IMG/VR virus record: IMGVR_UViG_2675903413_000007
Location: 1-16,008 of that record
Direction: 5' to 3' (one strand)
Length of the DNA: 16,008 nucleotides
Origin: a virus
Taxonomy: Duplodnaviria > Heunggongvirae > Uroviricota > Caudoviricetes
Shown here: piece by piece, positions 1,237-16,008 of the stretch
Layout of the letters: each line of letters begins with the position of its first letter
How positions within the stretch are numbered: the stretch's first letter is position 1
Translations under genes and position numbers: made by a program
Notes under the pieces: model-generated
Databases searched by the model: none
Told to the model about the DNA's origin: nothing
The model's input: only the letters and a program-made list of their open reading frames with translations

Positions 1237-1237
1237 A

Positions 1238-1453
1238 TCATGAGTCTTTGATAAACTGATTTATCTTTGGATAGTTGTACCAGATAATCCCTCGTTTGCT
1301 GTCTGGCTTACCTAAAGGAGATACTCGTTTGAAGTGGAAGCCCTCCACCCAACAGTTCTGGCGGTATGCTTCAATTTGTCTGGCCCCCAGACCAGTGCGA
1401 AGCATCAGGCCGTATTCAACCATCCACTCTTCATTAAAGATTACTTGTGCCAT
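1238..1453 (-). CDS. xisR: Excisionase / DNA-binding protein (Rac XisR/YdaQ-like), 71 aa
   Basis: Small ORF immediately upstream of int on the same strand. ATG at 1453 is preceded by AGGTGA 5-6 nt upstream; the track start at 1477 is a TTG. Translation [35 protein letters not shown]... matches Rac YdaQ from memory. Confidence 0.82.
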
Positions 1454-1531
1454 CGCATCACCTCTGGCAGGCGCCAATGTTAGACTGAAATTGACGCCCG
1501 ATGTTGATTATTAATAATCAGCTATGAAGTT

Positions 1532-1741
1532 TTAATTTGAATACAATGCAATTCTCGAGGACTGAAGTTTCTCGCAATTAAAATTTATCAGTTTTACTTT
1601 CTGCTCTCTGGAAACGCCTGCTTCTTTTTTACCTGAGAGCATTTTTTCGCATTCTGATTTCGTTAGTTTAGATTTTGAATATCTTGTCCAGTTAGTAGGA
1701 GTGCCACCTTCCTTTTCAATAGTGGCGGTAATTTTATACAT
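1532..1741 (-). CDS. ydaC: Rac prophage small protein YdaC-like (DUF1187), 69 aa
   Basis: ORF MYKITATIEKEGGTPTNWTRYSKSKLTKSECEKMLSGKK... in the conserved Rac order between xisR and ralR. Start taken at the internal ATG (1741) that overlaps the ralR stop by 8 nt; the track ORF extends to 1813. Confidence 0.65.
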   Translation of the reverse strand: MYKITATIEKEGGTPTNWTRYSKSKLTKSECEKMLSGKKEAGVSREQKVKLINFNCEKLQSSRIALYSN

Positions 1742-1928
1742 GAACACCTCCATTATTATTTCCAGTGGTTCGTTTATTCCATCTTTCGAGTGCTTCTTTT
1801 TCACTTCCACCATAACCGGTTCGGGATTCGCATCCGTTACACTTCGCTCGGTAATATCCTGAAATGGCTTTCACCGTTACTGATGGACAACCACAAAATG
1901 GACATGGTTTAACATTGTCATATCTCAT
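1734..1928 (-). CDS. ralR: Restriction alleviation protein Lar/RalR, 64 aa
   Basis: Translation MRYDNVKPCPFCGCPSVTVKAISGYYRAKCNGCESRTGYGGSEKEALERWNKRTTGNNNGGVHV matches Rac RalR from memory, including the CxxC...CxxC pattern. Start taken at the third Met of the track ORF. Confidence 0.88.
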   Translation of the reverse strand: MRYDNVKPCPFCGCPSVTVKAISGYYRAKCNGCESRTGYGGSEKEALERWNKRTTGNNNGGVHV

Positions 1929-1984
1929 AATTTTTCTCATAAAAAATATTTCAAGTTGGCGGTGCATTACACCGCCAGGCTGAA

Positions 1985-2794
1985 TTATTCCTCTGAATTA
2001 TCGATTACACTGTATTCCCCGGTTAATACAGAGGAATCTGCAGGATCGATTGTCAGTGGTTCCTTTTCATCCATTGATACTGCACGCTGGATCTCAATTG
2101 ATACGGGCAGATATTTGAACAGGCGACGAATAGCCGTTTTCTTTGCCATTTCTTCCCAGTGAGTTACCCACGGCCCGTTATTACCAGCTTTACTCAGGCT
2201 GCGCACCAGCTCAATCTGTTTGCGCGTCATAACTTCAAACTGAGTACCTCCGTCTTTCAGTCTTGCGACAGCATAGACGTGGGTAACCGGGGCATCTTCG
2301 TTTTCTCCCGGGCGGTGTATTAACTTTTCATCAAGGCCAAATTCGAAGCTAAACTCGTCACCTTCACGGACAACACGGGCTGACAGGCTGGCGATTTGAC
2401 CAGAACGGCGAGCCAGATCAATCATGCCGCGATAGCCAATGATTAGCTGAACGTTCTTTTTACCGCTCTTTTCGTTTTTATTACCAAAAGGCAGTAAATA
2501 TGCATGACCGAGGGCGCTACCTGGCTCAAGTCCGAGCTGTGAACACTGTACGATCGCACTGACAAAACTCATAGTGTCACAGTTTCCTAACGCCGGAACT
2601 TTACGAATTTCTGTGGTGGCGATACGGATCATACGTTCAGCCGTCATATGGCGTGGAAGAGCTGCTGCCAGTTGCTCTTTCATTGATGGCTGGTTAATAA
2701 AACTAATCACGTCGCTATTTTTAACTGCTGCTGGTGCACGGTTTCCCTGAGTTTTTTGCAGATCGGCTTTTGCGATTGGTGGTTGCTTAGTCAT
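1985..2794 (-). CDS. recT: Recombinase RecT (single-strand annealing protein), 269 aa
   Basis: Translation from [21 protein letters not shown]... to ...[10 protein letters not shown] matches E. coli Rac RecT over its full length as recalled. Start at 2794 overlaps the upstream recE stop, as in K-12. Confidence 0.95.
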
Positions 2795-3479
2795 TTGCAT
2801 ATTCCTTAGCCCAGCGGGGCAGTGATAATGTCTTAATAGCTGGCCATTCATCGGTATTCAGGCAGTCAGACAGGGTTCGCAGATTGCGGTGATATTCCTG
2901 TTGACCTGCCAGTTTTGCTTCTTCGCCCATCATGAAAATTTCAACCGGATAACGTCCGCATTCAATAGTTGTGCTGGCAACCAGAAAAACGAAAGTTGGC
3001 TGCACTCCAAACTGTGCTTCATAACCGTCACTGTAGAATGCATCCTGAACGTGATAGCGGTAGTCGTAATAAGCGGTTTTGAATCGTTGAATATCCGCCG
3101 TAGTTTTCACGTCCATGATCCAGTGAAATTCAGGGATAATTTTGTCCGGACGGCACCGACACAAAATTCCTGTTTCAGGATCTTCCCAGTAAATTGATGA
3201 TTCAGCGTGTCCGGCGCTTTCAACAAGCCATTGCCCCAGCGGCAAAGCCATAACGCTTTGATACATGAGTTCAATTTTCCGGCCTTCTTCCGCAGTGATA
3301 ACCGTTTTTCCTGTGCTTGCGCATTCCATCAGAAACGCTTTCTCTTCTTCTTTTCCGGCGTTTGTACGGCGGTTAAATTCAGGTGCTACGATAAAGCGGT
3401 TACTGAATTCTTCCGGTTCAAGTACGGGAAGATGCTCCAGAGTGGCTTCGCTCTTTATTTTTTGTAACTGTCCTCGATA
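2787..3479 (-). pseudogene. recE: 5'-truncated recE (exonuclease VIII) remnant: C-terminal ~230 codons only, no start codon
   Basis: The minus-strand frame is open from the stop at 3512-3510 down to 2787 and translates to ...[54 protein letters not shown]...[15 protein letters not shown], which matches the RecE C-terminal nuclease domain. Full RecE is ~866 aa. The homology and GC-rich composition stop near 3480, where the AT-rich island begins. The only in-frame Met is at 3329. Confidence 0.85.
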
Positions 3480-3484
3480 ATTTT

Positions 3485-4264
3485 TTGTACATTGATGGTG
3501 ATAGCCGCATTACGAATGATGAGAACAAGCCGTTGGGTATTAAGGCTTTGATCGAGCGACTTTGCGCAGAGAATGGTCAAGAAACAGATCATGAGGATTT
3601 CGATTCATGGTACTGCTATGATGCTTTGAAAGCGCGTTTGCAACATATGCGTTGGTTTCAATTTTATGATGCTGTTGAGATTATCGGAGATCTATTAAGA
3701 AAAAGAGATGTAGAAAGAGGCCATACTTGGGGTAAGAAGGCATTAGAAGACATTACTTTTACATCATATCGTCAGAAATTGAACGAGTTATTCGCATCTC
3801 GAAATATTGACTGGAAAATGAATTCTGCTGGTAGGTTAGAAACACCACTACCAAATGAATTAGAACAAAAAATCGATGAAACTAACAACTTATTGCAAGA
3901 CCAGTTTGAACCTGCAAGGAGGCACTATGTGAAAGCCCGGGCTTTTGCATTAGGTGCGCATAAGGATCCAGAAAATTCCATAAAAGAATCAATAAGTGCA
4001 ATAGAAAGCATGTGTCGGACTTATTATCCTTCAGCCTCAACCTTGGGCGATGTATTAAAACTGATGAGAAAAGAAAACACTATCTCACCTATGCTTTTAA
4101 CGGTGATAGAGAAATTTTACGCTTATACAAATGCAGAGCCAGCAGTAAGACATGGTAGCAACAAGGTTTCTTCTGTCTTGGAATACGATGCTGAATTCGT
4201 GTTGCATATATCAGCAGCATTTATTAGAACAATAATACAAAGAAAAGCTGTTTTGGATAACTAA
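3485..4264 (+). CDS. Hypothetical protein, 259 aa as drawn; start uncertain (TTG, no RBS); possible Abi/HEPN-like C-terminal module
   Basis: Long AT-rich ORF beginning exactly at the recE junction. The first codon is TTG with no Shine-Dalgarno, and the frame is open upstream to 3407 inside the recE remnant, so the native N-terminus may be lost. Predicted helical protein; the C-terminal segment ...[31 protein letters not shown]... loosely resembles abortive-infection C-terminal (HEPN-type) modules. The similarity is weak and unverified. Confidence 0.5.
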
Positions 4265-4350
4265 GTCAGACTTACAGCCAACTGACTGTCTCTTATTATT
4301 CAAAACATAATAATGTTAGGTCCGCTTATCGCACATCAGGGACAACCATA

Positions 4351-4381
4351 CTCAAATCTCCCACATTGCAGGAGATTTGAG
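4351..4381. repeat. Perfect 11-bp inverted repeat (ctcaaatctcc / ggagatttgag) with 9-nt spacer between convergent island genes
   Basis: Read directly from the sequence. No flanking T- or A-tract, so it is not a canonical intrinsic terminator; it could be an attenuator or a protein-binding palindrome. Confidence 0.4.
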
Positions 4382-4504
4382 TGTGAACACGTCACCGTGG
4401 AACAAAGACTGTATCATCGGTCAAAAAAGACCTGGTTATCTAGCAAAAACTTTTAACATACCAACAAACTTAATTTATTTAAATGCTATTAATACAACTA
4501 ATGT

Positions 4505-5731
4505 TTAAAATATATATTTTATATCAACCCAATTTTTAGCATTATTGTCAACTAAAGTAACGCTATGTCCATGACTTGAATTTATAGCATCGATTACTGA
4601 TTGTGATGGGTGTCCATGTGAATGACCATCCGACTGAGCTATAAACAAAACATTATCAAAATCCGCAATTATTTTTTGATTGAAATTTAATTCCGAACCA
4701 TGATGAGGTAATGTCATCACCCTTACCGTTTTAATCACTTTTGAATAGAATTCAGCCCATTTATTATAATACAATGATGTATTAAGCTTTGAGTCACCTG
4801 TTAATAAAACAGATCTAATTCCTTTATCTCTATCAAAGAGAAAATGTCGCTCAACCCGACTATTTCTAAAACTAAACCACTCACGAGAAGGCTCATTAAC
4901 AATTTTCATCTCAGCTTCTTGATTATTAATAATCAAGAGATTGATTGATATTACATTATGATCGCCAGCAAGTTTTAAATAACACTCGCGTAATTTCTTT
5001 CTTTCCCCCGTGCTAGTTAATATTTTAAGCATTTTTTTCTTACTTAACTCAGTAAAACCATTTTCTATTAACTGCTGACTGAAAATTTCAATTTTCTTAC
5101 GTGAACGGGGCGGTATCCAAGAAATAAATGACATTAGTGTATCAGTTTTGTTTTCCCCAATCCTTTTAACCAACCAACGGTTACATTCAACATCTCCTTT
5201 GGAGTCAGATATTTTCATTGGTAAGCTTACAGCGCTACCCTTAATGTTTTCACTATTAAATATAGGAGGGTCAAAATTATCATCAATATCACTGGGGTAA
5301 AGCAAAGATATATCTGCCTCAGGCAACCTTGATTTTATCCATTTGACAGGATCAATGAGAAATTCCATAAAAAGACCTGACGTAGAATTAGAGCATAGCT
5401 CCGATGCAATTAAGTAATAGCTATCATGGATATCTAGGTATGGTAATACAACCTTGCGTATTTTGTTATCTACAAGCTGACATAAATGGTCAAATCCATT
5501 TATATGGTCTGAATCCAAATGAGAGATGTATACCACATCAATATATTTCTCATCAATATTAAAGAGAGATTTAGCCACATCCATCTCCCTACGCAACGCA
5601 TTTAATTGGTCACTTCCGCAGTCATACACATAACTGTAAAGCAAACTACCATCCCTTCCCCTCAGTCCGCCTAAACTAAATCCACCCTGGCCAACGGGAA
5701 ACAATCTTTTATGAAATACTTCTCCGCTCAT
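4505..5731 (-). CDS. Standalone ComEC/Rec2-type metallo-beta-lactamase-fold hydrolase (predicted nuclease), 408 aa
   Basis: ATG at 5731 is preceded by AAGAAGGA about 7 nt upstream. Ordered MBL motifs are visible: FPVGQGGFSL near the N-terminus, YDCGSD, ISHLDSDHINGF (HxDxDH variant, as in ComEC ISHADQDH), LPHHGSELN (ComEC HHGS motif) and SDGHSHGHPS (C-terminal GHP). A ~250-aa insertion lies between motif 2 and the HHGS motif. There are no transmembrane competence-channel segments. Very AT-rich. Confidence 0.75.
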   Translation of the reverse strand: MSGEVFHKRLFPVGQGGFSLGGLRGRDGSLLYSYVYDCGSDQLNALRREMDVAKSLFNIDEKYIDVVYISHLDSDHINGFDHLCQLVDNKIRKVVLPYLDIHDSYYLIASELCSNSTSGLFMEFLIDPVKWIKSRLPEADISLLYPSDIDDNFDPPIFNSENIKGSAVSLPMKISDSKGDVECNRWLVKRIGENKTDTLMSFISWIPPRSRKKIEIFSQQLIENGFTELSKKKMLKILTSTGERKKLRECYLKLAGDHNVISINLLIINNQEAEMKIVNEPSREWFSFRNSRVERHFLFDRDKGIRSVLLTGDSKLNTSLYYNKWAEFYSKVIKTVRVMTLPHHGSELNFNQKIIADFDNVLFIAQSDGHSHGHPSQSVIDAINSSHGHSVTLVDNNAKNWVDIKYIF

Positions 5732-6445
5732 ATATCCTTCTTACACCCTAACGTGATCATAAAATTGTCTTAAAGTTAAGTTTAAAGCTAAAAAGTCACA
5801 GCTCATTCCAACTCGTGAGCAATAGGAATGTATATTCAATCAGTTAGAGGATCAACCCGATTTTCTCTAATGAGATTTCGCAACGCAGTACGAACAGCAG
5901 CTACTTCTGCCATCTCATTAACAACCACACTGGACTACAATCCCCTAAGTTCTACAGACTGTAACCATATCCTCTTCACAGAAATAATCTGATTAATGCT
6001 GAAGGTCATCTTTCTCGACGCGAATGTATGACATAACAACCTCAGTTAATTATCTTTCGATAGAAAAATACCTTCACAAAAGGTTTAAGCAACCCATCAC
6101 AAGACAACACGCTAAGCTTGCCTTGTAAGCGTCCTGCTTAACCGAACAGTTCGCTTTCAGAGGATCTCCGGAGAACAGCTCCGATGCCTTATAAGGCCAA
6201 TGCTCGCTCCTCGCTCACTGCGGACCTAAGGTTTGGTCAGCTTGTTCGCACTCTGCCAAAAGCGGGAGTTACTCCCATTCGGTGTTAATCAATGTAGAGC
6301 AGATCAATCAACGACAAAGAAAATGAGAGGCATATCACTACTCATATGAAAATTATTGTAGTAAAGTGAGCCGTAAGTTCATCATTTATAAATCATATAG
6401 CATATATGTTATATCAATTTTAATTTAAATGGCAGAATAATTACC

Positions 6446-7150
6446 ATGGAAAAAATTAAAGCTCCTTGTCCATATTGTAAAGGTGAAAAAAATTGCCACA
6501 TAATAGGCCATAAAAAAAGAGAATGGAGTGAGGATGATGGGGGCAACTATTTTTGGGCTGAAAGTGAATACAAATTATTAGAGTGTATGGGGTGCGACGG
6601 AATATTTACATATATTAAATCCCGTCACAGTGAAGATTACGACATTGAAAGAGATGAGTCAGGCTATGATTGTATGGTATATAACTATCATATATCAACA
6701 TATCCCACTCAAGAGCAAGAAGAGATTAGACCAACTTGGTTTGGTGAGATATTAAACAAAGATCGTCAGCTGTATGTAATAATGAACGAAATGTACATCG
6801 CATTTCAAAATAAATCATTCATTTTAGCGGCGATTGGACTTAGAACTATTTTTGACAGAACAGTTGAGGTTCTAAATATTCATCCAGGATATACATTAGG
6901 CCAGAAGGTTGACATTCTTAAAGAGGAAGGTTTTATTGGGGAAACAGAAAGGAGCCAACTTAAAATTGTAACCGAAGCTGGCAACTCAGCTGCACACAGG
7001 ACATGGGCACCGAACGAAACTGAATTTAAATCGCTTTTGGTAATTATAGAAAATTTTGTAATGCGAACAATACTAAAAAATGAGGATATATTTAAGATTA
7101 CAGAAAAATTACCTGCGAAATATCCAAGACCTCCCAAAAAGCAAGAATAA
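6446..7150 (+). CDS. Zn-ribbon + DUF4145-like (HEPN-superfamily) protein, 234 aa
   Basis: The N-terminus has CPYC...(35 aa)...CMGC, a CxxC-CxxC zinc ribbon. The C-terminal ~100 aa contain AAIGLRTIFDRTVEVL and the motif TEAGNSAAHRTW, which matches the conserved GNxAAH signature of DUF4145 domains as I recall it. AT-rich; divergent from the MBL gene. Confidence 0.7.
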   Translation: MEKIKAPCPYCKGEKNCHIIGHKKREWSEDDGGNYFWAESEYKLLECMGCDGIFTYIKSRHSEDYDIERDESGYDCMVYNYHISTYPTQEQEEIRPTWFGEILNKDRQLYVIMNEMYIAFQNKSFILAAIGLRTIFDRTVEVLNIHPGYTLGQKVDILKEEGFIGETERSQLKIVTEAGNSAAHRTWAPNETEFKSLLVIIENFVMRTILKNEDIFKITEKLPAKYPRPPKKQE

Positions 7151-7559
7151 TGTACGTAAGTGTAAATAGAGCTAAGAGATTATATATTGACTCTGGTTAT
7201 CTCTATTAGCACATGCTTTTTGTAATGCCTTAACTGATTATTTAAACTCCTGTCAGCTTTTCGCTCAAAGCGGACTAAAGTGTTGGCTTGTGACTGACTT
7301 AGCGCATTTAAGGAAGTGGTGGTGGTGACGGGGTGTTGTGTCCCATTTCCACAGAATAAATCAGAGAAACTATAGCGGCTGTAATGGCAATCTATGGTCT
7401 TGCTATTGCTCTTATGGATCACCTTTCTGATTGATTTCATATTGGCGAGGTAACGGGAGTTAAGTAGAATAGCTGCGGGTGCTTGAGGCTGTCTGCCTCG
7501 GGCATGAACACCAAAGGCAGATAGAGAAAAGCCCCAGTTAACATTACGCGTCCGGCAAG

Positions 7560-7640
7560 ACGCTTAACATTAATCTGAGGCCACATCTATGCTTTGCATA
7601 CGTAGATTAGCCTCTTACCGACCAAAAGGTCAAGGAGAAG
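7560..7640 (-). ncRNA. sok: Expected Sok-type antisense RNA opposite the mok/hok leader (position approximate)
   Basis: Inferred from hok-family locus architecture only; no promoter or terminator for it was pinned down in the sequence. Confidence 0.25.
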
Positions 7641-7837
7641 CAGGCTATGAAGCAGCAAAAGGCGATGTTAATCACCCTGATCGTCATCTGTTTAACCGTT
7701 ATAGTGACGGTACTGGTAACGAGGAAAGACCTCTGCGAGGTACGAATCCGAACCGACCAGACGGAGGTCGCTGTCTTCACAGCTTACGAACTTGGGGAGT
7801 AAGAGGACCAGCGGGGAGAAATCCCCGCAACCTCTGA
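7589..7837 (+). CDS. mok: Mok-type overlapping reading frame (modulator of killing) of the hok locus
   Basis: An 82-codon ORF in a different frame that starts upstream of hok and fully overlaps it, which is the canonical mok arrangement. Confidence 0.5.
   Translation: MLCIRRLASYRPKGQGEAGYEAAKGDVNHPDRHLFNRYSDGTGNEERPLRGTNPNRPDGGRCLHSLRTWGVRGPAGRNPRNL
7647..7802 (+). CDS. hokD: Hok-family type I toxin (HokD/RelF-like membrane peptide), 51 aa
   Basis: ATG at 7647 with AAGGAGA about 10 nt upstream. Translation MKQQKAMLITLIVICLTVIVTVLVTRKDLCEVRIRTDQTEVAVFTAYELGE is near-identical to E. coli HokD/RelF and Gef/HokC as recalled. It has a single transmembrane helix and the conserved Cys. Confidence 0.9.
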   Translation: MKQQKAMLITLIVICLTVIVTVLVTRKDLCEVRIRTDQTEVAVFTAYELGE

Positions 7838-8265
7838 TGTATTATGCATCCTCAACGCAGCCACAGTTAACCTGATTGGCGGGTTTATTTCATCTGTAAA
7901 TATTTTTATAAAAATAATGCCCACGCACAGCATAAAACAAAAAGTATTACAGATAAAAAAGGAACGTAATGTGCAGATTTGTTGTTTTCCATATTTACTC
8001 ACCTTAATATGATTAATCCTGATAGGGTTGTTATTTCAGCGGTTTTCAAATGAGATATTATGGTGATCTGACAAATTTGCATAGCATTAAAATTTAATTT
8101 GTTTAACCACTTTTAATAATAAGCGTTGTTTGCATCCCAGCAATCTGTTGTTTGGTTTTTATTCCATTAAGGTGGGGGCTTTACACTGGAACCAGTTTAT
8201 TTATACTTTATACGTCAGCCTGAACAACTGGCATCTGCTGCACTGCGCCATCGAGAGATTGAGAA

Positions 8266-8865
8266 ATGGCGCATATACAACTGGTCAAACAAACTTCTTC
8301 TGGTTTACTTCTCCCGGCGACGCCGGAGAGTTGCGATTTTCTGCATCAAATCAAAATAGGTGAGTGGATACACGCAGACTTTAAGCGTGTGCGTAACTAC
8401 GCATTCCACAAGCGTTTTTTCAAACTCCTGCAACTGGGATTCGATTACTGGACTCCGGTCGGTGGGGCGATCACGCCTCGCGAACGAGAACTGCTGTCTG
8501 GTTTCGTTGATTACCTGTGCGAATCAGTTGGTCGGGAACACACGCCAGCCCTGAGTGATGCCGCAGAGCAATACCTTAACACCGTTGCGACTCGTAGAAC
8601 CCGGGATACGGCGTTGCTAAAGTCGTTTGAGGCTTTCCGCGAGTGGGTAACCATTCAGGCCGGATTTTACACCGAGCATATTTATCCGGACGGTAGCCGT
8701 GGGCGTCGGGCAAAATCCATCGCTTTTGCGAATATGGACGAAGTCGAGTTTCAGCAGGTTTATAAATCTGTACTGAATGTGCTGTGGAACTGGATTCTGT
8801 TCCGTAAATTCTCCTCTCAGGAGGAAGTTGAAAATGTGGCCGCACAACTACTGGAGTTTGCGTAA
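8266..8865 (+). CDS. Conserved lambdoid nin-region protein of unknown function, 199 aa
   Basis: GC-normal ORF whose stop overlaps the next start (TAATG at 8863-8867), i.e. translationally coupled to the YbcO-like gene. I do not recognise a specific family with certainty. Confidence 0.6.
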   Translation: MAHIQLVKQTSSGLLLPATPESCDFLHQIKIGEWIHADFKRVRNYAFHKRFFKLLQLGFDYWTPVGGAITPRERELLSGFVDYLCESVGREHTPALSDAAEQYLNTVATRRTRDTALLKSFEAFREWVTIQAGFYTEHIYPDGSRGRRAKSIAFANMDEVEFQQVYKSVLNVLWNWILFRKFSSQEEVENVAAQLLEFA

Positions 8866-9155
8866 TGGTGAATTTACGTAAAGCGGCTAAAGGCCAGATG
8901 TGCCAGATCAGAATCCCTGGCTACTGCAATCACAATCCCGAAACCTCTGTGCTGGCGCATTACAGGCTGGCGGGGACGTGCGGAACAGCGACAAAACCAC
9001 ACGATATGCAGGCGGCGATAGCCTGTAGCTCATGCCACGATCTAATCGACGGGCGGGTAAAAACCAGCGATTACACCAAAGAAGAATTGCGCCTGATGCA
9101 TGCTGAAGGGGTTTTTCGCACACAAGAAATCTGGAGAAAGAAAGGTCATTTATGA
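8865..9155 (+). CDS. YbcO-like nin-region protein (DUF1364, Zn-binding putative nuclease), 96 aa
   Basis: Translation MVNLRKAAKGQMCQIRIPGYCNHNPETSVLAHYRLAGTCGTATKPHDMQAAIACSSCHD... shows the Cys/His pattern and overall similarity to DLP12 YbcO as recalled. Its stop overlaps the next start (ATGA at 9152-9155). Confidence 0.7.
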   Translation: MVNLRKAAKGQMCQIRIPGYCNHNPETSVLAHYRLAGTCGTATKPHDMQAAIACSSCHDLIDGRVKTSDYTKEELRLMHAEGVFRTQEIWRKKGHL

Positions 9156-9694
9156 TTTACCCAACGAATACAGGAAAAAGCGGAGAACACCTTCGCCTCA
9201 CCACGCTGGAAAGTGTCTGGATTCAGGGAAAACTACGTATGTGGGGGCGCTGGTCGTATATTGGCGGTGGCAGGTCAGGGAATATGTTCAATCAGTTGTT
9301 GGCATCCAAAAAACTGACGAAAACAGCCATTAATGAAGCCCTGCGCAGAATGAAAAAAGCGGGAATAGAGAAAGCTGAGCTGGAAGCGTTTTTGCGAGAG
9401 ATGATCAACGGCAAGCAAAAGAGCTGGCTGGCGCATTGTACTGATGCAGAGGCGTTATGTATTGATCGAGTCATAAGTGAGGTGCTGGCAGAGCATCCAG
9501 GATTGATTTGCATTCTCCGGCAACGCTATGAAGGGCGGGGGATGACTAAGCGCAAAATGGCTGAATTGCTAAATGATGCACACCCAGAGTGGTGTTTTAG
9601 CACATGCGAAAAACGGATTGCTAATTGGTTAGCTGTTGCTGAGTATGCCCTATATATTCCCATGCGTGAATCATTTGCTGAGAAAATGGCTTGA
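9152..9694 (+). CDS. Putative late-gene antiterminator Q (non-lambda, phage 21/82-like type), 180 aa
   Basis: Last gene of the coupled nin-like operon, followed within ~80 bp by a strong intrinsic terminator (tR'-like) and further downstream by a phage-21-type lysis cassette. The call rests on position and context, not on a recognised motif. Confidence 0.5.
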   Translation: MIYPTNTGKSGEHLRLTTLESVWIQGKLRMWGRWSYIGGGRSGNMFNQLLASKKLTKTAINEALRRMKKAGIEKAELEAFLREMINGKQKSWLAHCTDAEALCIDRVISEVLAEHPGLICILRQRYEGRGMTKRKMAELLNDAHPEWCFSTCEKRIANWLAVAEYALYIPMRESFAEKMA

Positions 9695-9773
9695 TTTCTT
9701 ACGTATAAACTGCTTCAATTTTGCTATGCTTCGCAAAGCTGTATCGCGAGGCGGATTGCAGACATGGACATCG

Positions 9774-9803
9774 TAAAAAAACCGCTTAATGCGGTTTTTT
9801 TAC
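9774..9803 (+). terminator. Intrinsic terminator (tR'-like): aaaaaa-ACCGC-ttaat-GCGGT-ttttttt
   Basis: GC stem with 5-nt loop followed by a 7-T run; the upstream A-tract makes it potentially bidirectional. Located just after the Q-like gene. Confidence 0.7.
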
Positions 9804-10121
9804 GTCAGGAAAGCAGGGGAGAATGCTGCTAGTTGGGCAACTGGTCTTTCTGCTCCAAATTATAACAGAGACCAGTTATAGTTTCGGTGCTGTGTTTTTT
9901 TTACAATATTGTGATAACACATTGCTGGCGGGAGTTTTGATATTTCTTGGCAGGGGCTGATGATGCGTTATCCTGATGTCGTCAACTCATATAAAATGAG
10001 ATGAGAGATCATTGCAGGGTGGTTTGTAATTCGCTGTTTAGCGGGACAATATGTTGTCTGATACAAGACACCCGACGCCTCAGATTACTATAATAAAGAC
10101 GAAGCATCCTTTGTATTGACC

Positions 10122-10147
10122 AACCGCCTGTTTAGGCGGTTCTTTTT
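10122..10147 (+). terminator. Intrinsic terminator: AACCGCCT-gttt-AGGCGGTT-cttttt
   Basis: Perfect 8-bp stem and 4-nt loop followed by a T-rich tract, read directly from the sequence. Confidence 0.6.
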
Positions 10148-10679
10148 GGGCTGGTTTATTGTATGCCAAATGATTATTAAAAAGGTTGTGTTAATAACAA
10201 AATCCGAAATAATATGCCTGCATATTTTTATCTTGCTTATATTCTGCATATTGTGCATAGCAGGCTCATCCCTGCAATCAAAACTGTATGATGAGTATTT
10301 TTTGTTTTCCTTTTTTCCAGTCATCTGATGATGACCTGCTTCTTTTTAATCCGGATCGACATCAGTTTTTTAAGATAATTCCTGCGAGTTATATGCATAA
10401 ATACCACAAACTCCGCATTTTATGTGGTTGGGAGTTGCCGGGCGCGCAGTGAGTTTGCTAAGAAAACTCCTGCATGGTGAATCCCCCTGTGCGGTGGGGT
10501 GATACCATTAACCTTTTCTGTCGCCGACAGGTATCACGAACATTTTGTTCACCGGGAGGCACCCGGCACCATGCACTTCAATAGATTCTCTCCACATTAT
10601 GGATATTCTTTCAGAATATCCCACGCAGACTTTGTGTAAATGTTAACAAATGTGCGTTTTATTTGATCTGATTCGCTGT

Positions 10680-10709
10680 TTGAGCGTCCAAAACAACGGT
10701 ATATATAAT
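10680..10709 (+). promoter_or_regulatory. Candidate sigma70 promoter for the lipoprotein moron (-35 ttgagc, 18-bp spacer, -10 tataat)
   Basis: Consensus -10 hexamer TATAAT at 10704-10709 with a TTGAGC -35 at 10680-10685, about 30 bp upstream of the lipoprotein ATG and its GAGGA RBS. Confidence 0.4.
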
Positions 10710-10738
10710 CCTTTACTATATGACATATGTGAGGAAAA

Positions 10739-11167
10739 ATGGGTTTTCGTAGCGCATCAATTCTTACGTTGATTATTAGTGGGATTATTATCGGGTGCAC
10801 TGATGCTGTATCGACAAATTATCATGACCGTACATCATATTACTCCGATAAAGTAATAGAGACACAGTATGTGAGTTCATCTGAACGTACTTCTGATGTT
10901 AGTGAGGATATCCGTCTGTATGCCCATCAAATCAAGAGCGCCATCGAAAAACAGTTCGGGGATGCGAGTAAGTATTCAGGAAAAGAGTGTACACTGAGAA
11001 TGCATATGGCCCCGAATGGCCTTCTACTGGAGGTTAAAAGAGAAAGTGGAGACCTCGATTTATGTCGTGAAGCGATGAATGCGATAAAGAATGCTGATAT
11101 ACCTGCCCCCCCTTCGCCGGAAGTATATAAAGTATTTCAAAATGGGGTGCTGGATTTTAAACCCTGA
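10739..11167 (+). CDS. Lipoprotein with TolA domain III-like C-terminal domain, 142 aa
   Basis: Signal peptide with lipobox IIGC; GAGGA RBS. The C-terminal segment YAHQIKSAIEKQFGDASKYSGKECTLRMHMAPNGLLLEVKRESGDLDLCREAMNAIKNADIPAPPSPEVYKVFQNGVLDFKP aligns closely with the C-terminus of E. coli TolA (YAGQIKSAIESKFYDASSYAGKTCTLRIKLAPDGMLLDIKPEGGDPALCQAALAAAKLAKIPKPPSQAVYEVFKNAPLDFKP, from memory). Confidence 0.8.
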   Translation: MGFRSASILTLIISGIIIGCTDAVSTNYHDRTSYYSDKVIETQYVSSSERTSDVSEDIRLYAHQIKSAIEKQFGDASKYSGKECTLRMHMAPNGLLLEVKRESGDLDLCREAMNAIKNADIPAPPSPEVYKVFQNGVLDFKP

Positions 11168-11317
11168 TATTTATTGTTTTGTAATAAACGGTTTCGGCTT
11201 AGGTTTGTTCTGACACAGCTACGGCACTGAGCTAAATTTAGCGGATAGTCAGCTCTGAGCCAGTGGCGGACGTAACAACTACTATTGCTGAGATTTTAAT
11301 GGATTGAGGAGCAAGAA

Positions 11318-11713
11318 GTGGGATTAAAGAAAATCGTTATGTTGACTTTTTGGGTCGGTTTTGTTGCGGGATGCACACCTTTACACCCTTCAGATTGCCA
11401 CAAAACTACTGCTACAGGTAGTTGCAGTTCAGGACGCTGGGATGATCAGGATGAATGGGGGGCGCAAGCGCGGGGAATCAGAGCTGCAATTAATGCCAAA
11501 CTTGATGAGCCGCATAACTGGAAAGGGAAAAAATGCAGGTTGCATATGGAATTCTCTCAGGATGGCACGGCGTTAAAAATATCTACCAGTAACGGTGATA
11601 AAGCCTATTGCGAAGCGATAAAGTCCGCAGCTCATAAAGCCAAATTTCCGGCCTTCAACAATCCGGAAGTCTACAGAGATTTTCAGAAATCTGGCTTTGA
11701 CATGCGAGGTTAG
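11318..11713 (+). CDS. Second lipoprotein with TolA domain III-like C-terminal domain (divergent paralog), 131 aa
   Basis: GTG start at 11318 preceded by GAGGAG; lipobox VAGC. The C-terminus KCRLHMEFSQDGTALKISTSNGDKAYCEAIKSAAHKAKFPAFNNPEVYRDFQKSGFDMRG keeps the TolA-III pattern (C...L...DG.....GD...C.A...A.....P.....VY..F...). Confidence 0.75.
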   Translation: MGLKKIVMLTFWVGFVAGCTPLHPSDCHKTTATGSCSSGRWDDQDEWGAQARGIRAAINAKLDEPHNWKGKKCRLHMEFSQDGTALKISTSNGDKAYCEAIKSAAHKAKFPAFNNPEVYRDFQKSGFDMRG

Positions 11714-11838
11714 CTCTTCAATTACTATATCTCATTCATAGCAAACTGACAGATTTGATGATGTTCTATATACGAAACCTGTGATGTCAAGTCTGAGCTA
11801 ATACAAATAAACATAATATCAGAGAAATACATTTTATT

Positions 11839-11862
11839 AGCTCGCTACGGCGAGCTTTTTAT
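11839..11862 (+). terminator. Intrinsic terminator after the lipoprotein moron: AGCTCGC-tacg-GCGAGCT-ttttt
   Basis: Perfect 7-bp stem, 4-nt loop and T-tract, read directly from the sequence. Confidence 0.6.
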
Positions 11863-11964
11863 ATTGCATCGTCTCCAGCATATATATCAATTAAGGCTCT
11901 GATTGATGTGTCTGAAAGCCTACACATAATAACTATGCCATCCGTTCCGTGCGGAGGTGAGGCT

Positions 11965-12180
11965 ATGAAATCCATGGACAAAATTTCAACAGGCATTGCC
12001 TACGGCACCTCCGCAGGCAGTGCTGGCTACTGGTTTTTACAGTTGCTCGATAGAGTAACTCCGTCACAGTGGGCTGCAATCGGTGTGCTGGGTAGCCTGG
12101 TATTTGGCCTGCTGACGTACCTGACAAACCTTTATTTCAAGATTAAAGAAGATAAGCGCAAGGCTGCGAGAGGTGAATAA
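11965..12180 (+). CDS. Phage 21-type pinholin S (dual-start MKSM motif), 71 aa
   Basis: Translation [71 protein letters not shown] matches S21 as recalled. GGAGGTGA RBS upstream; stop overlaps the endolysin start (TAATG). The track ORF begins earlier, at 11908. Confidence 0.88.
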
Positions 12181-12677
12181 TGCCTCCATCATTACGAAAA
12201 GCCGTTGCTGCTGCTATTGGTGGCGGAGCAATTGCTATAGCATCAGTGTTAATCACTGGCCCAAGTGGTAACGATGGTCTGGAAGGTGTCAGCTACATAC
12301 CATACAAAGATATTGTTGGTGTATGGACCGTATGTCACGGGCATACAGGAAAAGACATCATGCTCGGTAAAACGTATACCAAAGCAGAATGCAAAGCACT
12401 CTTGAATAAAGACCTTGCCACTGTCGCCAGACAAATTAACCCATACATCGAAGTCGATATACCGGAAACAACGCGCGGCGCTCTTTACTCATTCGTTTAC
12501 AACGTGGGTGCTGGCAATTTCAGAACATCGACGCTTCTTCGCAAAATAAACCAGGGCGATATCAAAGGCGCATGTGATCAGTTACGTCGCTGGACATATG
12601 CTGGCGGTAAGCAATGGAAAGGTCTCATGACTCGTCGTGAGATTGAGCGTGAAATCTGTTTGTGGGGTCAGCAATGA
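12180..12677 (+). CDS. SAR endolysin (phage 21 R-like lysozyme, GH24), 165 aa
   Basis: N-terminal signal-anchor-release segment [18 protein letters not shown] followed by a T4-lysozyme-like catalytic region (LEG...KDI...WTV). Near-identical to the R21 sequence as recalled. Confidence 0.93.
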
Positions 12678-13138
12678 ACAGAGTAACCGCGATTATCTCC
12701 GCTCTGGTTATCTGCATCATCGTCTGCCTGTCATGGGCTGTTAATCATTACCGTGATAACGCCATTACCTATAAAGCCCAGCGCGACAAAAATGCCAAAG
12801 AACTGAAGCTGGCGAACGCGGCAATTACTGACATGCAGATGCGTCAGCGTGATGTTGCTGCGCTCGATGCAAAATACACGAAGGAGTTAGCTGATGCGAA
12901 AGCTGAAAATGATGTTCTGCGTGATGATGTTGCCGCTGGTCGTCGTCGGTTGCACATCAAAGCAGTCTGTCAGTCAGTGCGTGAAGCCACCACCGCCTCC
13001 GGCGTGGATAATGCAGCCTCCCCCCGACTGGCAGACACCGCTGAACGGGATTATTTCACCCTCCGGGAACGACTGGTAATGATGCAGGCCCAACTTGAAG
13101 GTGCTCAGCAATACATAACCGAGCAGTGTTTAAAGTAA
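12674..13138 (+). CDS. Inner-membrane spanin Rz (i-spanin)
   Basis: Translation [68 protein letters not shown]... matches lambda-type Rz. ATG overlaps the endolysin stop (ATGA). Confidence 0.93.
12894..13079 (+). CDS. Outer-membrane spanin Rz1 (o-spanin lipoprotein), embedded in Rz in the +1 frame
   Basis: Translation [52 protein letters not shown]... has lipobox VVGC and a proline-rich region; classic embedded Rz1. Confidence 0.9.
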
Positions 13139-13275
13139 AATCTTAACTACAATATGATTCATTTTGATGATTGTTTCATAAGGAACAGTGAAGTAAGATC
13201 TAAGAGGAGTTAAATTTTATACAGTATAATCATAATATTGCAGCAAGGTGGTTATAATTGAAAGAATATTTAGAT

Positions 13276-14733
13276 ATGAATACATCTCATGTAAGAGTTG
13301 TTACTCATATGTGTGGGTTCCTGGTTTGGCTCTATAGTCTTTCAATGTTGCCACCAATGGTTGTAGCATTGTTTTATAAAGAAAAAAGCCTGTTCGTTTT
13401 CTTTATAACTTTCGTTATATTTTTTTGCATTGGTGGCGGAGCGTGGTATACAACTAAGAAATCTGGCATTCAATTACGTACCCGTGATGGGTTTATTATA
13501 ATTGTAATGTTTTGGATTTTGTTTTCTGTTATTAGTGCATTCCCTTTATGGATTGACTCAGAACTTAATTTAACGTTCATTGATGCTCTGTTTGAAGGGG
13601 TTTCTGGAATAACAACAACAGGAGCAACTGTAATTGATGATGTTAGTTCATTACCTCGGGCATATTTGTACTATCGGTCACAGTTAAATTTTATAGGTGG
13701 TTTAGGAGTTATTGTTCTGGCGGTTGCTGTATTGCCATTATTGGGTATTGGTGGTGCAAAGCTTTATCAGTCAGAAATGCCGGGGCCATTTAAGGATGAC
13801 AAACTCACTCCCCGCCTGGCCGATACGTCACGGACACTGTGGATAACTTATTCTTTATTAGGTATTGCTTGTATTGTCTGTTATAGACTTGCAGGAATGC
13901 CTTTGTTTGATGCTATTTGTCACGGGATTTCCACAGTTTCGCTTGGTGGTTTCTCAACTCATAGCGAGAGTATCGGATATTTTAATAACTATTTGGTTGA
14001 GCTGGTGGCTGGTTCTTTTTCCCTGCTATCGGCTTTCAACTTCACTCTTTGGTATATTGTTATTAGCAGGAAAACGATAAAACCTTTAATCAGAGATATT
14101 GAACTTCGTTTCTTTCTGTTAATAGCCTTAGGGGTGATCATTGTTACCTCTTTCCAGGTCTGGCATATAGGTATGTATGACTTGCATGGAAGTTTTATTC
14201 ATTCGTTTTTTCTTGCCAGCTCCATGCTCACTGATAATGGTTTAGCTACGCAGGATTATGCAAGTTGGCCCACGCACACGATAGTGTTTTTGCTGTTGTC
14301 AAGTTTCTTTGGGGGATGTATAGGTTCAACTTGTGGTGGAATTAAGTCACTTCGATTTCTTATACTTTTCAAACAAAGCAAACACGAGATAAATCAGCTT
14401 TCTCATCCCAGAGCGTTGTTGAGTGTAAATGTAGGAGGGAAGATAGTTACAGATCGTGTAATGAGGTCTGTATGGAGTTTCTTTTTTCTTTATACACTCT
14501 TCACGGTGTTTTTTATACTGGTGTTAAATGGTATGGGATATGATTTTCTTACATCATTTGCAACAGTGGCTGCATGTATTAATAATATGGGATTAGGTTT
14601 TGGGGCTACTGCATCGTCATTCGGAGTGCTTAATGACATTGCAAAATGTTTAATGTGCATAGCTATGATTCTTGGTCGCCTTGAAATTTATCCTGTTATT
14701 ATATTGTTTTCAGGTTTTTTTTGGCGCTCCTAA
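13276..14733 (+). CDS. trkG: Potassium uptake protein TrkG (Trk system membrane subunit), 485 aa
   Basis: Translation from MNTSHVRVVTHMCGFLVWLYSL... matches Rac-encoded TrkG of E. coli K-12. Multi-pass membrane protein; AT-rich gene. The track ORF starts 18 nt earlier on a TTG. Confidence 0.93.
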   Translation: MNTSHVRVVTHMCGFLVWLYSLSMLPPMVVALFYKEKSLFVFFITFVIFFCIGGGAWYTTKKSGIQLRTRDGFIIIVMFWILFSVISAFPLWIDSELNLTFIDALFEGVSGITTTGATVIDDVSSLPRAYLYYRSQLNFIGGLGVIVLAVAVLPLLGIGGAKLYQSEMPGPFKDDKLTPRLADTSRTLWITYSLLGIACIVCYRLAGMPLFDAICHGISTVSLGGFSTHSESIGYFNNYLVELVAGSFSLLSAFNFTLWYIVISRKTIKPLIRDIELRFFLLIALGVIIVTSFQVWHIGMYDLHGSFIHSFFLASSMLTDNGLATQDYASWPTHTIVFLLLSSFFGGCIGSTCGGIKSLRFLILFKQSKHEINQLSHPRALLSVNVGGKIVTDRVMRSVWSFFFLYTLFTVFFILVLNGMGYDFLTSFATVAACINNMGLGFGATASSFGVLNDIAKCLMCIAMILGRLEIYPVIILFSGFFWRS

Positions 14734-14870
14734 TATATGGCTGATTTATAATTGTGAGTTTAATATTATGTTGACTCACTCATTGATCCAATACCTAACT
14801 TTACCAGCAACCCCTCCGTCCCCAGTAGCACTGGCTGCTGGGGTGCGTTTTATTCATAAAGCAAGGCTGT

Positions 14871-15161
14871 ATGAGCGAGAAATTAAAGATAGTCTATCGC
14901 CCATTACAAGAATTGTCACCGTATGCGCACAACGCCAGGACGCACAGCCCTGAGCAGGTGGCACAACTGGTAGAAAGTATTAAGCAATTCGGCTGGACTA
15001 ATCCGGTGCTGATTGACGAAAAGGGCGAAATTATTGCGGGTCACGGTCGTGTTATGGCGGCTGAAATGCTCAAAATGGATTCTGTTCCGGTCATTGTTCT
15101 GTCTGGCCTGACGGATGAGCAGAAAAAGGCGTACCGCCTGGCAGATACCTTCTGCCCGTAA
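14871..15161 (+). CDS. ynaK: ParB-like nuclease-domain protein (Rac YnaK-like), 96 aa
   Basis: Translation [67 protein letters not shown]... carries the ParB N-terminal domain signature ([11 protein letters not shown], resembling the ParB GxRRxxA box). It sits downstream of trkG as in K-12. Confidence 0.78.
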
Positions 15162-15162
15162 G

Positions 15163-16008
15163 GTGAATGGTAAGGCGCTTTCAGCTGATATAACACTGAC
15201 GCCGAAAGATATTGGTACGCTTAACTCAACAACAATGTCATTCAGCGGTGGTGCTGGTTGGTTCAAATTAGCAACGGTAACCATGCCACAGGCGAGTTCT
15301 GTTGTTTCAATTACGTTGATTGGTGGCGCGGGATTTAACGTGGGGTCACCTCAACAGGCAGGTATATCTGAACTTGTTTTGCGTGCAGGTAATGGTAATC
15401 CGAAGGGGATTACTGGTGCTTTATGGCAGCGCACATCGACAGGGTTTACAAATTTTGCCTGGGTCAATACATCTGGTGATACTTACGATATTTACGTTGC
15501 AATCGGAAATTATGCGACTGGTGTAAATATTCAATGGGATTATACCAGTAATGCCAGCGTGACGATTCATACGTCACCAGCATATTCTGCTAATAAGCCG
15601 GAAGGGTTAACGGACGGTACAGTTTATTCACTCTATACGCCATCAGAGCAGTTTTATCCGCCTGGCGCACCAATCCCGTGGCCATCAGATACCGTTCCGT
15701 CTGGCTATGCCCTGATGCAGGGGCAGACTTTTGACAAATCTGCATACCCGAAACTTGCAGCCGCTTATCCGTCAGGCGTGATCCCTGATATGCGTGGCTG
15801 GACGATTAAGGGCAAACCCGCCAGTGGTCGTGCCGTATTGTCTCAGGAACAGGACGGCATTAAATCGCACACCCACAGCGCCAGCGCATCCAGTACGGAT
15901 TTGGGGACGAAAAACACATCGTCGTTTGATTACGGAACCAAATCCACGAATAACACCGGGGCGCATACCCATAGTATTAGCGGGACTGCAAATAGTGCCG
16001 GTGCGCAC
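15163..16008 (+). pseudogene. Side tail fibre gene fragment (Stf-like), 5'-truncated and running off the 3' end of the window
   Basis: Frame open from 15163 to the window end with no convincing start. Translation ...[106 protein letters not shown] shows the repeated G.H.H His-box motifs of lambdoid and T-even tail-fibre distal regions. The ORF track does not list it, presumably because it lacks a start and a stop. Confidence 0.75.

Follow-up and report, generated by a model that had tools for sequence, protein, structure and literature searches.

Paired prophage lipoproteins ending in TolA domain III: possible periplasmic decoys for colicins and filamentous phages

Two adjacent genes, ORF-A and ORF-B (ORF, open reading frame), are carried by a Rac-type E. 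coli prophage in a stretch of Caudoviricetes DNA of 16,008 nucleotides (IMG/VR record IMGVR_UViG_2675903413_000007, positions 1 to 16,008), which we call the window. ORF-A (10739..11167, + strand, 142 aa) and ORF-B (11318..11713, + strand, 131 aa) encode the proteins A and B, each made up of a lipoprotein signal peptide with a lipobox, a linker, and a domain of the same kind as the C-terminal domain III of the host protein TolA (TolA-III). The pair is a moron insert in front of the lysis genes, and it is one instance of a broad "lipoprotein TolA-III" cargo family that has no descriptive name. We favour, at about an even chance of being right, the reading that A and B are tethered to the outer membrane and act there as decoys or competitive inhibitors where group A colicins and filamentous phages depend on TolA for import.

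The lipoprotein signals can be read directly from the proteins. The rule applied is of the PROSITE type: a Lys or Arg in the first seven residues, an uncharged hydrophobic stretch, and [LVI][ASTVI][GAS]C with the Cys at 15-35. Both proteins satisfy it. A begins with MGFRSASILTLIISGIIIGC and has the lipobox IIGC with Cys20 (10796-10798), and B begins with MGLKKIVMLTFWVGFVAGC and has VAGC with Cys19 (11372-11374). The two lipoboxes had been proposed in an earlier reading made from the sequence alone (the sequence-only reading); in each protein the lipobox is preceded by a basic N-region, which is short, and then by a hydrophobic core. ORF-B starts with GTG, 6 nt past GAGGAG. This start is supported by the Citrobacter and Serratia copies, which use GTG there, and the Klebsiella copy has ATG one base later. 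The Prokaryotic Genome Annotation Pipeline (PGAP) places the start of ORF-B at the internal ATG 11339, and the lipobox is retained with either start. The residue after the lipobox Cys steers membrane sorting by the Lol system, a residue other than Asp leading to the outer membrane. Both proteins have Thr at that position (+2), which predicts outer-membrane sorting of A and B. Linkers of 29-34 residues follow. That of A is rich in Ser, Thr and Tyr (residues 21-54) and leads into the TolA-III domain at residues 55-142 (10901-11164); that of B is TPLHPSDCHKTTATGSCSSGRWDDQDEWG (residues 20-48; 11375-11461), with the domain at residues 49-131 (11462-11710).

The identity of the C-terminal domain is established by sequence and by fold. 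The TolA C-terminal family PF06519 matches A with 82.6 bits (E 2.4e-23) and B with 54.6 bits (E 1.3e-14) against a gathering cut-off of 25 bits, a threshold also passed by the plasmid relatives and by a diverged variant of A (A') described below. When PDB sequences were searched with phmmer, residues 55-142 of A lay without a gap on E. coli TolA 334-421 and residues 51-129 of B on TolA 341-419, and the C-terminus of each protein coincides with the last residue of TolA. With TolA 334-421, A shares 59% identity and B 31%, and the two proteins share 29% with one another (E 1e-18). The AlphaFold models have a predicted local distance difference test score of ~90 over the domain in both proteins, the signal peptide and linker being of low confidence. 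The top Foldseek match is 2x9a for A (E 2e-12, root-mean-square deviation 0.6 Å over 88 residues) and 3qdp for B (E 1.6e-8, 1.1 Å over 83 residues), with template modelling scores, on the target, of 0.85-0.96 for the two models; the C-terminal domain of TonB is seen only among the weak, distant matches. We took three strands, three helices and the Cys363-Cys388 pair as defining the TolA-III fold. The two disulfide cysteines are kept as C84/C109 in A and C73/C98 in B. The likeness to TolA-III seen from the sequence alone is therefore borne out by alignment, structure models, disulfide pair and common C-terminal end.

The proteins belong to the TolA_C family by this domain, and they are not TolA proper. 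TolA has an N-terminal transmembrane anchor (domain I), and the N-terminus of A and B is instead a cleavable lipoprotein signal. TolA also has an Ala/Lys-rich domain II, a length of ~400 aa and a place in the tol-pal operon; A and B have 142 and 131 residues and are encoded in a prophage late region. Their matches to full-length TolA profiles are confined to model positions 266-362 and 294-386, and against NF007065 they score 107.7 (A) and 53.7 bits (B), the cut-off being 213. RefSeq/PGAP names ORF-A "tolA: cell envelope integrity protein TolA", with a TIGR02794 score of 75 against a cut-off of 59.45 that comes from the last 96 residues only. The name is a misnomer. Among phage resources, the sole strong match in PHROG is phrog_5772, "unknown function", and neither protein matched an annotated exclusion family (Cor/Llp) there. 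The TolA-III fold was not found among the BFVD viral structures at E<=1e-3.

What such a domain could bind can be judged from the work on TolA itself. The N-terminus of TolB, colicin N and the N1 domain of the filamentous phage protein g3p all bind strand beta3 of TolA (A415-K420) by beta-strand addition, which depends mainly on the backbone, and D418P or K420P abolishes the binding of all three and gives a full tol phenotype (PMC4339652). In A this strand reads G-V-L-D-F-K-P, compared with A-P-L-D-F-K-P in TolA, so that LDFKP is kept exactly. B has S-G-F-D-M-R-G, in which F-D-M-R-G are beta-formers, with no proline at the positions equivalent to D418 and K420. The site shared by TolB, colicin N and g3p is plausibly intact in both proteins, to judge from these residues. 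The dissociation constants are ~1 µM for colicin N and TolA as opposed to ~40 µM for TolB and TolA (PMC4339652), from which it follows that a modest amount of decoy would titrate the parasites before TolB.

The position of the pair was expected from the sequence-only reading to be a moron slot between Q and the lysis cassette, and this is what comparison with related phages shows: the insert is present in some and absent from others that are otherwise related. Upstream is a Q-type antiterminator gene (9152..9694, +; DUF1133 with a weak Phage_antitermQ match). Downstream is the lysis cassette (11965..13138), comprising an S21-type holin, EssD (11965-12180, +), a signal-anchor-release (SAR) endolysin, RrrD (12180-12677, +), and the spanins Rz (12662-13138, +) and Rz1 (12894-13079, +). 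Other phages with the S21 holin match the window only from ~11927 on, which sets the right edge of the insert, and the left edge is set by the end of an STnc100-like element at 10628. The insert, holding promoter candidate, A, B and terminator, accordingly spans about 1.3 kb (10630..11926) on the + strand, with approximate edges given inexact mapping. Its GC content is 38-46% across the cassette versus 47-52% in the flanking phage genes. The pair thus is extra DNA of atypical composition between genes that are adjacent in relatives, as a moron is defined in the sense of Hendrix and Juhala. Phage mEp460, the sole phage in INPHARED to carry the genes, has the pair at 99.8% DNA identity, behind a different Q and before different lysis genes. 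Its holin adjoining the pair is annotated "Phage tail fiber protein", a misleading label. In 79 IMG/VR prophage loci, every copy of A at at least 99% identity is followed by B where the contig reaches. The block shared among these loci runs from ~10410-10548 (10410, 10451 or 10548) to 12181, the end of the holin, and the Q and endolysin beside it are either the same as in the window or unrelated (31-34% identity). The STnc100 element, A-B and the holin travel as one mosaic module.

The sequence-only reading had also set the pair between the Q terminator and the lysis cassette. What stands directly to the left of the pair is the STnc100-like small RNA element (10442..10628, +; Rfam RF02076, 86.6 bits compared with a gathering score of 47 bits), which is not demonstrably that terminator, and the best candidate for tR' downstream of Q is a strong intrinsic terminator 600 bp upstream (10122..10141, +). 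We considered the STnc100-like element as a part of the cassette and rejected it, because in phages with A' it lies beside the holin and away from A'. In A' prophages the STnc100-like segment is ~2.6 kb downstream of A', and many Stx1 phages have a 42-nt core of the element shortly downstream of stx1. The promoter and terminator proposed for the pair fared differently. The intrinsic terminator after the pair (11839..11864, +) is a strong one, reading AGCTCGC-TACG-GCGAGCT and then TTTTTATA; the hairpin at 11839-11856 with its T-run folds at -13 kcal/mol (z = -3.8), and none of 200 shuffles folds as well. Terminator prediction gave none between A and B. The sigma-70-like promoter candidate for ORF-A (10680..10709, +) has TTGAGC, an 18-nt spacer and TATAAT, with 10 of 12 positions matching, and it is identical in mEp460. 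A scan for the promoter pattern finds 11 sites in 2.5 kb, compared with 7.3 expected from shuffles, and the match is therefore weak by itself and is best called promoter-like.

The pair is common in E. coli. Gene A occurs in 898 of 5426 complete genomes, almost all chromosomal, and only in prophages; its protein family is essentially limited to E. coli and Shigella. Gene B occurs in 1269 of the 5426, in 826 chromosomal and 536 plasmid places. Copies at at least 99% identity number 781 for A and 784 for B, and these are the linked prophage pair. The diverged variant A' has 81% nt and 65-68% aa identity to A, is found solo, and has upstream DNA unrelated to that of A. On the chromosome of E. coli 2014C-3097 (locus L016, 4947-5375), in a Stx-like prophage, it follows Q, a DNA methylase gene, tRNA-Ile and tRNA-Arg and lies upstream of a nanS-p-type esterase gene, a position that we take to be the slot where Shiga toxin (Stx) phages carry stx.

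B-type genes are found much more widely. Proteins with 78-89% aa identity are encoded by solo chromosomal genes in Citrobacter, Enterobacter, Serratia, Klebsiella and Raoultella, in contexts that are unrelated to one another (one adjoins GmrSD and HEPN genes). About 190 bp of conserved upstream DNA moves with the B-type genes, between unrelated flanks. On plasmids, the conjugative backbones of the IncI1, IncI-gamma and IncB/O types carry a variant B' (88.5% aa) flanked by nikB and trbC, and pO157 has a B-type gene between psiA/hok and toxB. The plasmid loci with 88% aa identity, in the IncI-complex backbone (nikB-trbC) or pO157, are L010 (5965-6396), L015 (4965-5396) and L014 (4965-5396). More distant TolA-III lipoprotein genes are found on Klebsiella IncF plasmids beside a thioredoxin-like gene. 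Another group comprises 379 plasmid records, for the most part ColRNAI plasmids of K. pneumoniae that are 10-12 kb long. In these the gene for a TolA-III lipoprotein overlaps a signal-peptide-bearing TonB_C gene, and cloacin-type bacteriocin, immunity and lysis genes run divergently from this operon. In K. pneumoniae plasmid NZ_OM144978.1 (locus L012) the operon, with the lipobox LTAC in its TolA-III protein, occupies 3692-4425 (-), and it is at least 99% identical in the 379 records. An exhaustive profile search for the whole family recovered 593 cluster representatives at E<=1e-3. Of the top 148 new ones, 94 have at most 170 aa. A lipobox is present in 57 of the 77 short representatives that look complete, and none of these 57 has Asp at +2.

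The description of A and B as tandem paralogs suggests a local duplication and needs correcting, the nearest relatives of B (88% aa) being plasmid and chromosomal genes of other Enterobacterales. Judged by these identities, A and B are separate lineages and not the product of a recent duplication, since A is nearer to host TolA (59%) than to B (29%). A recent tandem duplication was ruled out on the same ground, and a recent capture of the resident tolA was ruled out by the lack of a blastn match between gene A and chromosomal tolA, 898 of the 5426 genomes being hit and not all of them. The ratio of nonsynonymous to synonymous substitution (dN/dS), by NG86, is 0.34 overall and 0.29 in the domain for A and A', and 0.08-0.11 for B and its plasmid and other-genus copies. 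These ratios indicate that both genes are functional and under purifying selection. In the linker of B (residues 20-48) dN/dS is 0-0.02 although dS exceeds 1, and the linker is near-invariant across genera. This invariance hints at an additional partner. The linker contains a Cys-x8-Cys pair and two Trp in an acidic stretch, in a part of the structure model with low confidence, and may be a second binding motif. We compared it (SSGRWDDQDEWG) to the TolB boxes of colicins, DGSGWSSE..W and, in a cloacin-like protein, SGPGWG. The likeness is weak, and we keep it only as a lead.

In the decoy reading, the lipid-anchored proteins would dangle a free TolA-III domain into the periplasm on a flexible linker. 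Without domains I and II of TolA they would be uncoupled from the TolQR motor, and they would present, at their extreme C-terminus, the beta3 surface for strand addition by which native TolA takes up its ligands, namely the TolB N-terminus, colicin N and g3p N1. The domain would be placed just under the outer membrane, where the T-domains of colicins exit the porins and where g3p arrives after pilus retraction. A ligand bound there would be held at the outer membrane and not pulled in, and the binding would be unproductive. The carrier would be expected to tolerate Tol-dependent (group A) colicins and related bacteriocins and to exclude filamentous phages that are pilus-specific, probably with some cost to Tol-Pal function at high expression. 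Periplasmic TolAIII is said to have been found by Levengood-Freyermuth and colleagues in 1993 to give tolerance to several group A colicins. Two divergent copies would probably widen the range of ligands. What we show is the domain with its fold, the lipobox, the conserved beta3 and disulfide, purifying selection and the moron genetics; that the proteins reach the outer membrane, are expressed in the lysogen, bind these ligands and give this phenotype is what we infer.

The locations of the homologues bear on this reading. TonB is the handle for group B bacteriocins and TonB-dependent phages, and the sole property common to a truncated TolA-III and TonB_C is that of a periplasmic handle hijacked by bacteriocins and phages. 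The decoy idea gains circumstantial support because homologues lie beside a secreted TonB_C on bacteriocin plasmids and also on IncI plasmids. Phage IF1 has the IncI pilus as its receptor (PMC7911016) and TolA-III as its co-receptor; the g3p of IF1 binds TolA's C-terminal domain (PDB 2x9a). A wider proposal, which we hold more tentatively and at a little under an even chance, is that mobile elements of the Enterobacterales (prophages, IncI and IncF plasmids, pO157, small bacteriocin plasmids and chromosomal islets) share a widespread strategy of immunity, the export of motor-less C-terminal domains of TolA, and on some plasmids of TonB, as periplasmic decoys. These would intercept bacteriocin translocation domains, and the g3p of pilus-specific filamentous phages, ahead of the real transducer. 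The Cys-loop and Trp-acidic linker of B would then serve as another bait, such as one for TolB or for ligands with a TolB box.

Several points weigh against the decoy reading. The lipidation and outer-membrane location of A and B are predictions, and the promoter at 10680-10709 that would serve expression in the lysogen is a consensus match at near chance level. The genes sit inside a late operon, and an O157 prophage gene, called TolA-type by the source paper, is 32-fold up on ciprofloxacin (PMC11125564). Late expression has no less support than lysogenic expression. If a decoy captures TolB, moreover, a tol-like envelope defect should result, which would be costly. Colicin A binds the opposite face of TolA, at L375-P380 and through cation-pi contacts of the lysines K368, K379 and K396 (PMC3365938). 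The corresponding residues are LLEVKR in A, with H, K and K at the lysine positions (K368H; K379 and K396 kept), and ALKIST in B, with E, S and H. By these residues, the colicin A site appears partly intact in A and is probably lost in B. The extreme constraint on the linker of B is not explained by a simple tether; as read from its substitution ratio, this linker is no passive one. Finally, PADLOC-DB 2.0 has 0 families that match A or B at E<=1, and a full-text literature search returned passing mentions only and no functional study of any family member.

The position of these genes would also suit a different role, in which A and B bind TolB, and perhaps Pal, and act as dominant negatives on Tol-Pal to aid lysis and virion release, vesicle formation, or the release of bacteriocins and toxins, with tolerance as a by-product. 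We consider this unlikely, though it is the strongest of the alternatives. The pair lies directly upstream of the holin in a Q-dependent late operon, A' occupies the stx position, the O157 prophage gene induced by ciprofloxacin is described as TolA-type (PMC11125564), and one homologue adjoins a bacteriocin and its lysis gene. Biotechnology, moreover, uses periplasmic TolAIII for leaky cells; by the account in PMC6195910, E. coli is rendered leaky with TolAIII fused to a signal peptide (Wan & Baneyx 1998). Against this, the pair comes with a promoter-like site of its own and with a terminator, which would shield the lysis genes, and the prophage already has a full set of holin, SAR endolysin and spanins. 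Solo B-type genes are under strong purifying selection in ordinary chromosomes and in plasmid backbones that have no lysis role, where constitutive leakiness would be costly, and the TonB_C partner on the bacteriocin plasmids would not weaken the envelope. It is mainly because free TonB_C has no obvious route to envelope weakening that we rank the decoy reading above it. The two models share one molecular step, the binding of TolA partners, and both could hold at different levels of expression.

The wide occurrence of B as a solo chromosomal gene among housekeeping genes raises the question of a role in host physiology, where an outer-membrane TolA-III would add to or rewire Tol-Pal, position TolB or Pal, or stabilise a stressed envelope and so raise the fitness of the carrier. 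The near-absence of replacement in the linker of B suggests a second specific partner, which would fit, as would the pairing of one Klebsiella plasmid copy with a thioredoxin-like gene. However, without TolQR coupling the domain cannot do the force-dependent job of TolA (PMC8928145), and the distribution, patchy and tied to mobile elements (present in 16-23% of E. coli genomes), is one that conflict genes typically show and physiology genes do not; we regard this role as improbable. A part in conjugation, modulating DNA transfer or entry exclusion and acquired only secondarily by prophages, is less probable still. It is suggested by the conserved position of B' in IncI-complex plasmids, with the relaxase gene nikB on one side and trb transfer genes on the other, and by the pO157 copy, which adjoins the leading region psiB-psiA-hok. 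But prophages, non-mobilizable plasmids and chromosomes also have the gene, in places where no transfer genes are near. A literature search found no part for TolA-III in conjugation, and the text of a paper on transposon-directed insertion-site sequencing of an I-complex plasmid has no match to colicin and has lipoprotein only in its reference list. That the frames are relics or mis-called, tolA fragments carried along by recombination, might be thought from the plain "tolA" label that PGAP gives A and from the partly degraded state of the window's prophage. This is effectively refuted by the selection and distribution data, and we give it almost no weight: both frames are intact and have lipoprotein signals added, dN/dS is well under 1, ~780 genomes have copies at at least 99% identity, most of the short representatives among the 593 have a lipobox, and there is no blastn-level similarity to chromosomal tolA.

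The rest of the window is that of a Rac-type prophage, partly degraded. The left end carries intR, xisR and RalR/RalA, followed by a truncated recE (2787-3329), a few candidate defence genes, a hok/sok-like element and then DUF1367-DUF1364-Q(DUF1133); downstream of Q come the A-B pair, the lysis genes and trkG. The candidate defence genes, which adjoin the truncated recE, encode a PADLOC PDC-S32/AbiJ-like protein (3485-4264, +), a metallo-beta-lactamase-fold protein with an LmuA-like C-terminal match (4505-5731, -) and a DUF4145 protein (6446-7150, +). The prophage has two type I toxin-antitoxin loci, one with the RalA antitoxin small RNA (1557-1735, +; 225 bits) opposite the ralR region, and the other with a sok-like antisense RNA (7477-7652, +; 105 bits) and an adjacent small ORF. 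A tRNA scan found no tRNA. The potassium transporter gene trkG (13258-14733, +; GC 33-40%) is a second low-GC cargo gene, placed after the spanins as in K-12 Rac. In the Rac prophage of K-12 MG1655 (1411000-1428000), ydaW leads directly to an rzpR pseudogene and then trkG, and the segment from Q to the endolysin, including the pair and the holin, is deleted.

That deletion removes the pair from K-12, which is probably why the pair has gone unstudied and which makes K-12 a clean host for testing it. If the decoy reading is true, some of the widespread natural tolerance to group A colicins would be accounted for by a pair present in about one-sixth of E. coli genomes. Relatives are carried by IncI resistance plasmids, pO157 and hundreds of Klebsiella bacteriocin plasmids. 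In that case it would also be clear how conjugative plasmids could offset the cost of pili to which filamentous phages attach. A co-receptor in the periplasm would be mimicked instead of a surface receptor being masked, which would be a mechanism of a new kind. A mobile tolerance gene of this sort would be a ready resistance determinant against the colicins, klebicins and filamentous or pilus-targeting phages that are under development as antimicrobials or against plasmids.

Among known systems, the host TolA-III (PDB 1TOL, 1S62, 2X9A, 3QDP/3QDR) shares with A and B the fold, the disulfide pair and the C-terminal end, with beta3 identical in A and conservatively substituted in B. Host TolA has a transmembrane helix, the long helical domain II and coupling to TolQR and the proton-motive force, all of which A and B lack; they are instead predicted to be anchored by a lipobox at the opposite membrane and are encoded on mobile elements rather than in the tol-pal operon. 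The closest functional analogue is the engineered periplasmic TolAIII, likewise a free exported TolA-III uncoupled from TolQR, which perturbs Tol processes and makes cells leaky. It is artificial, soluble, over-expressed and identical to the host domain, whereas A and B are natural, predicted to be lipid-anchored, diverged, and selected on mobile elements. Superinfection immunity by filamentous g3p targets the same interaction between g3p and TolA-III, in that periplasmic N-domains of g3p occupy TolA, and so keeps out filamentous phages and group A colicins. There the receptor is blocked; A and B would mimic the receptor and capture the ligand, the mirror image. Cor (phi80, HK022 and mEp phages), Llp (T5) and TraT (F) resemble A and B as small accessory lipoproteins of the outer membrane that are encoded on mobile elements and protect the carrier against phages, colicins or DNA coming in, but they are unrelated in sequence and fold and inactivate or mask an outer-membrane receptor (FhuA, OmpA). 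We found no paper that assigns a function to A or B, which we would place with these exclusion and tolerance lipoproteins of mobile elements, with mimicry as the proposed mechanism. A dominant-negative periplasmic C-terminal domain of TonB, the sister energy transducer, follows the same logic by competing for TonB boxes. Its natural secreted counterpart, the TonB_C of the Klebsiella ColRNAI plasmids (PF03544), is soluble and absent from the window, and is co-encoded with a lipoprotein of the TolA-III family.

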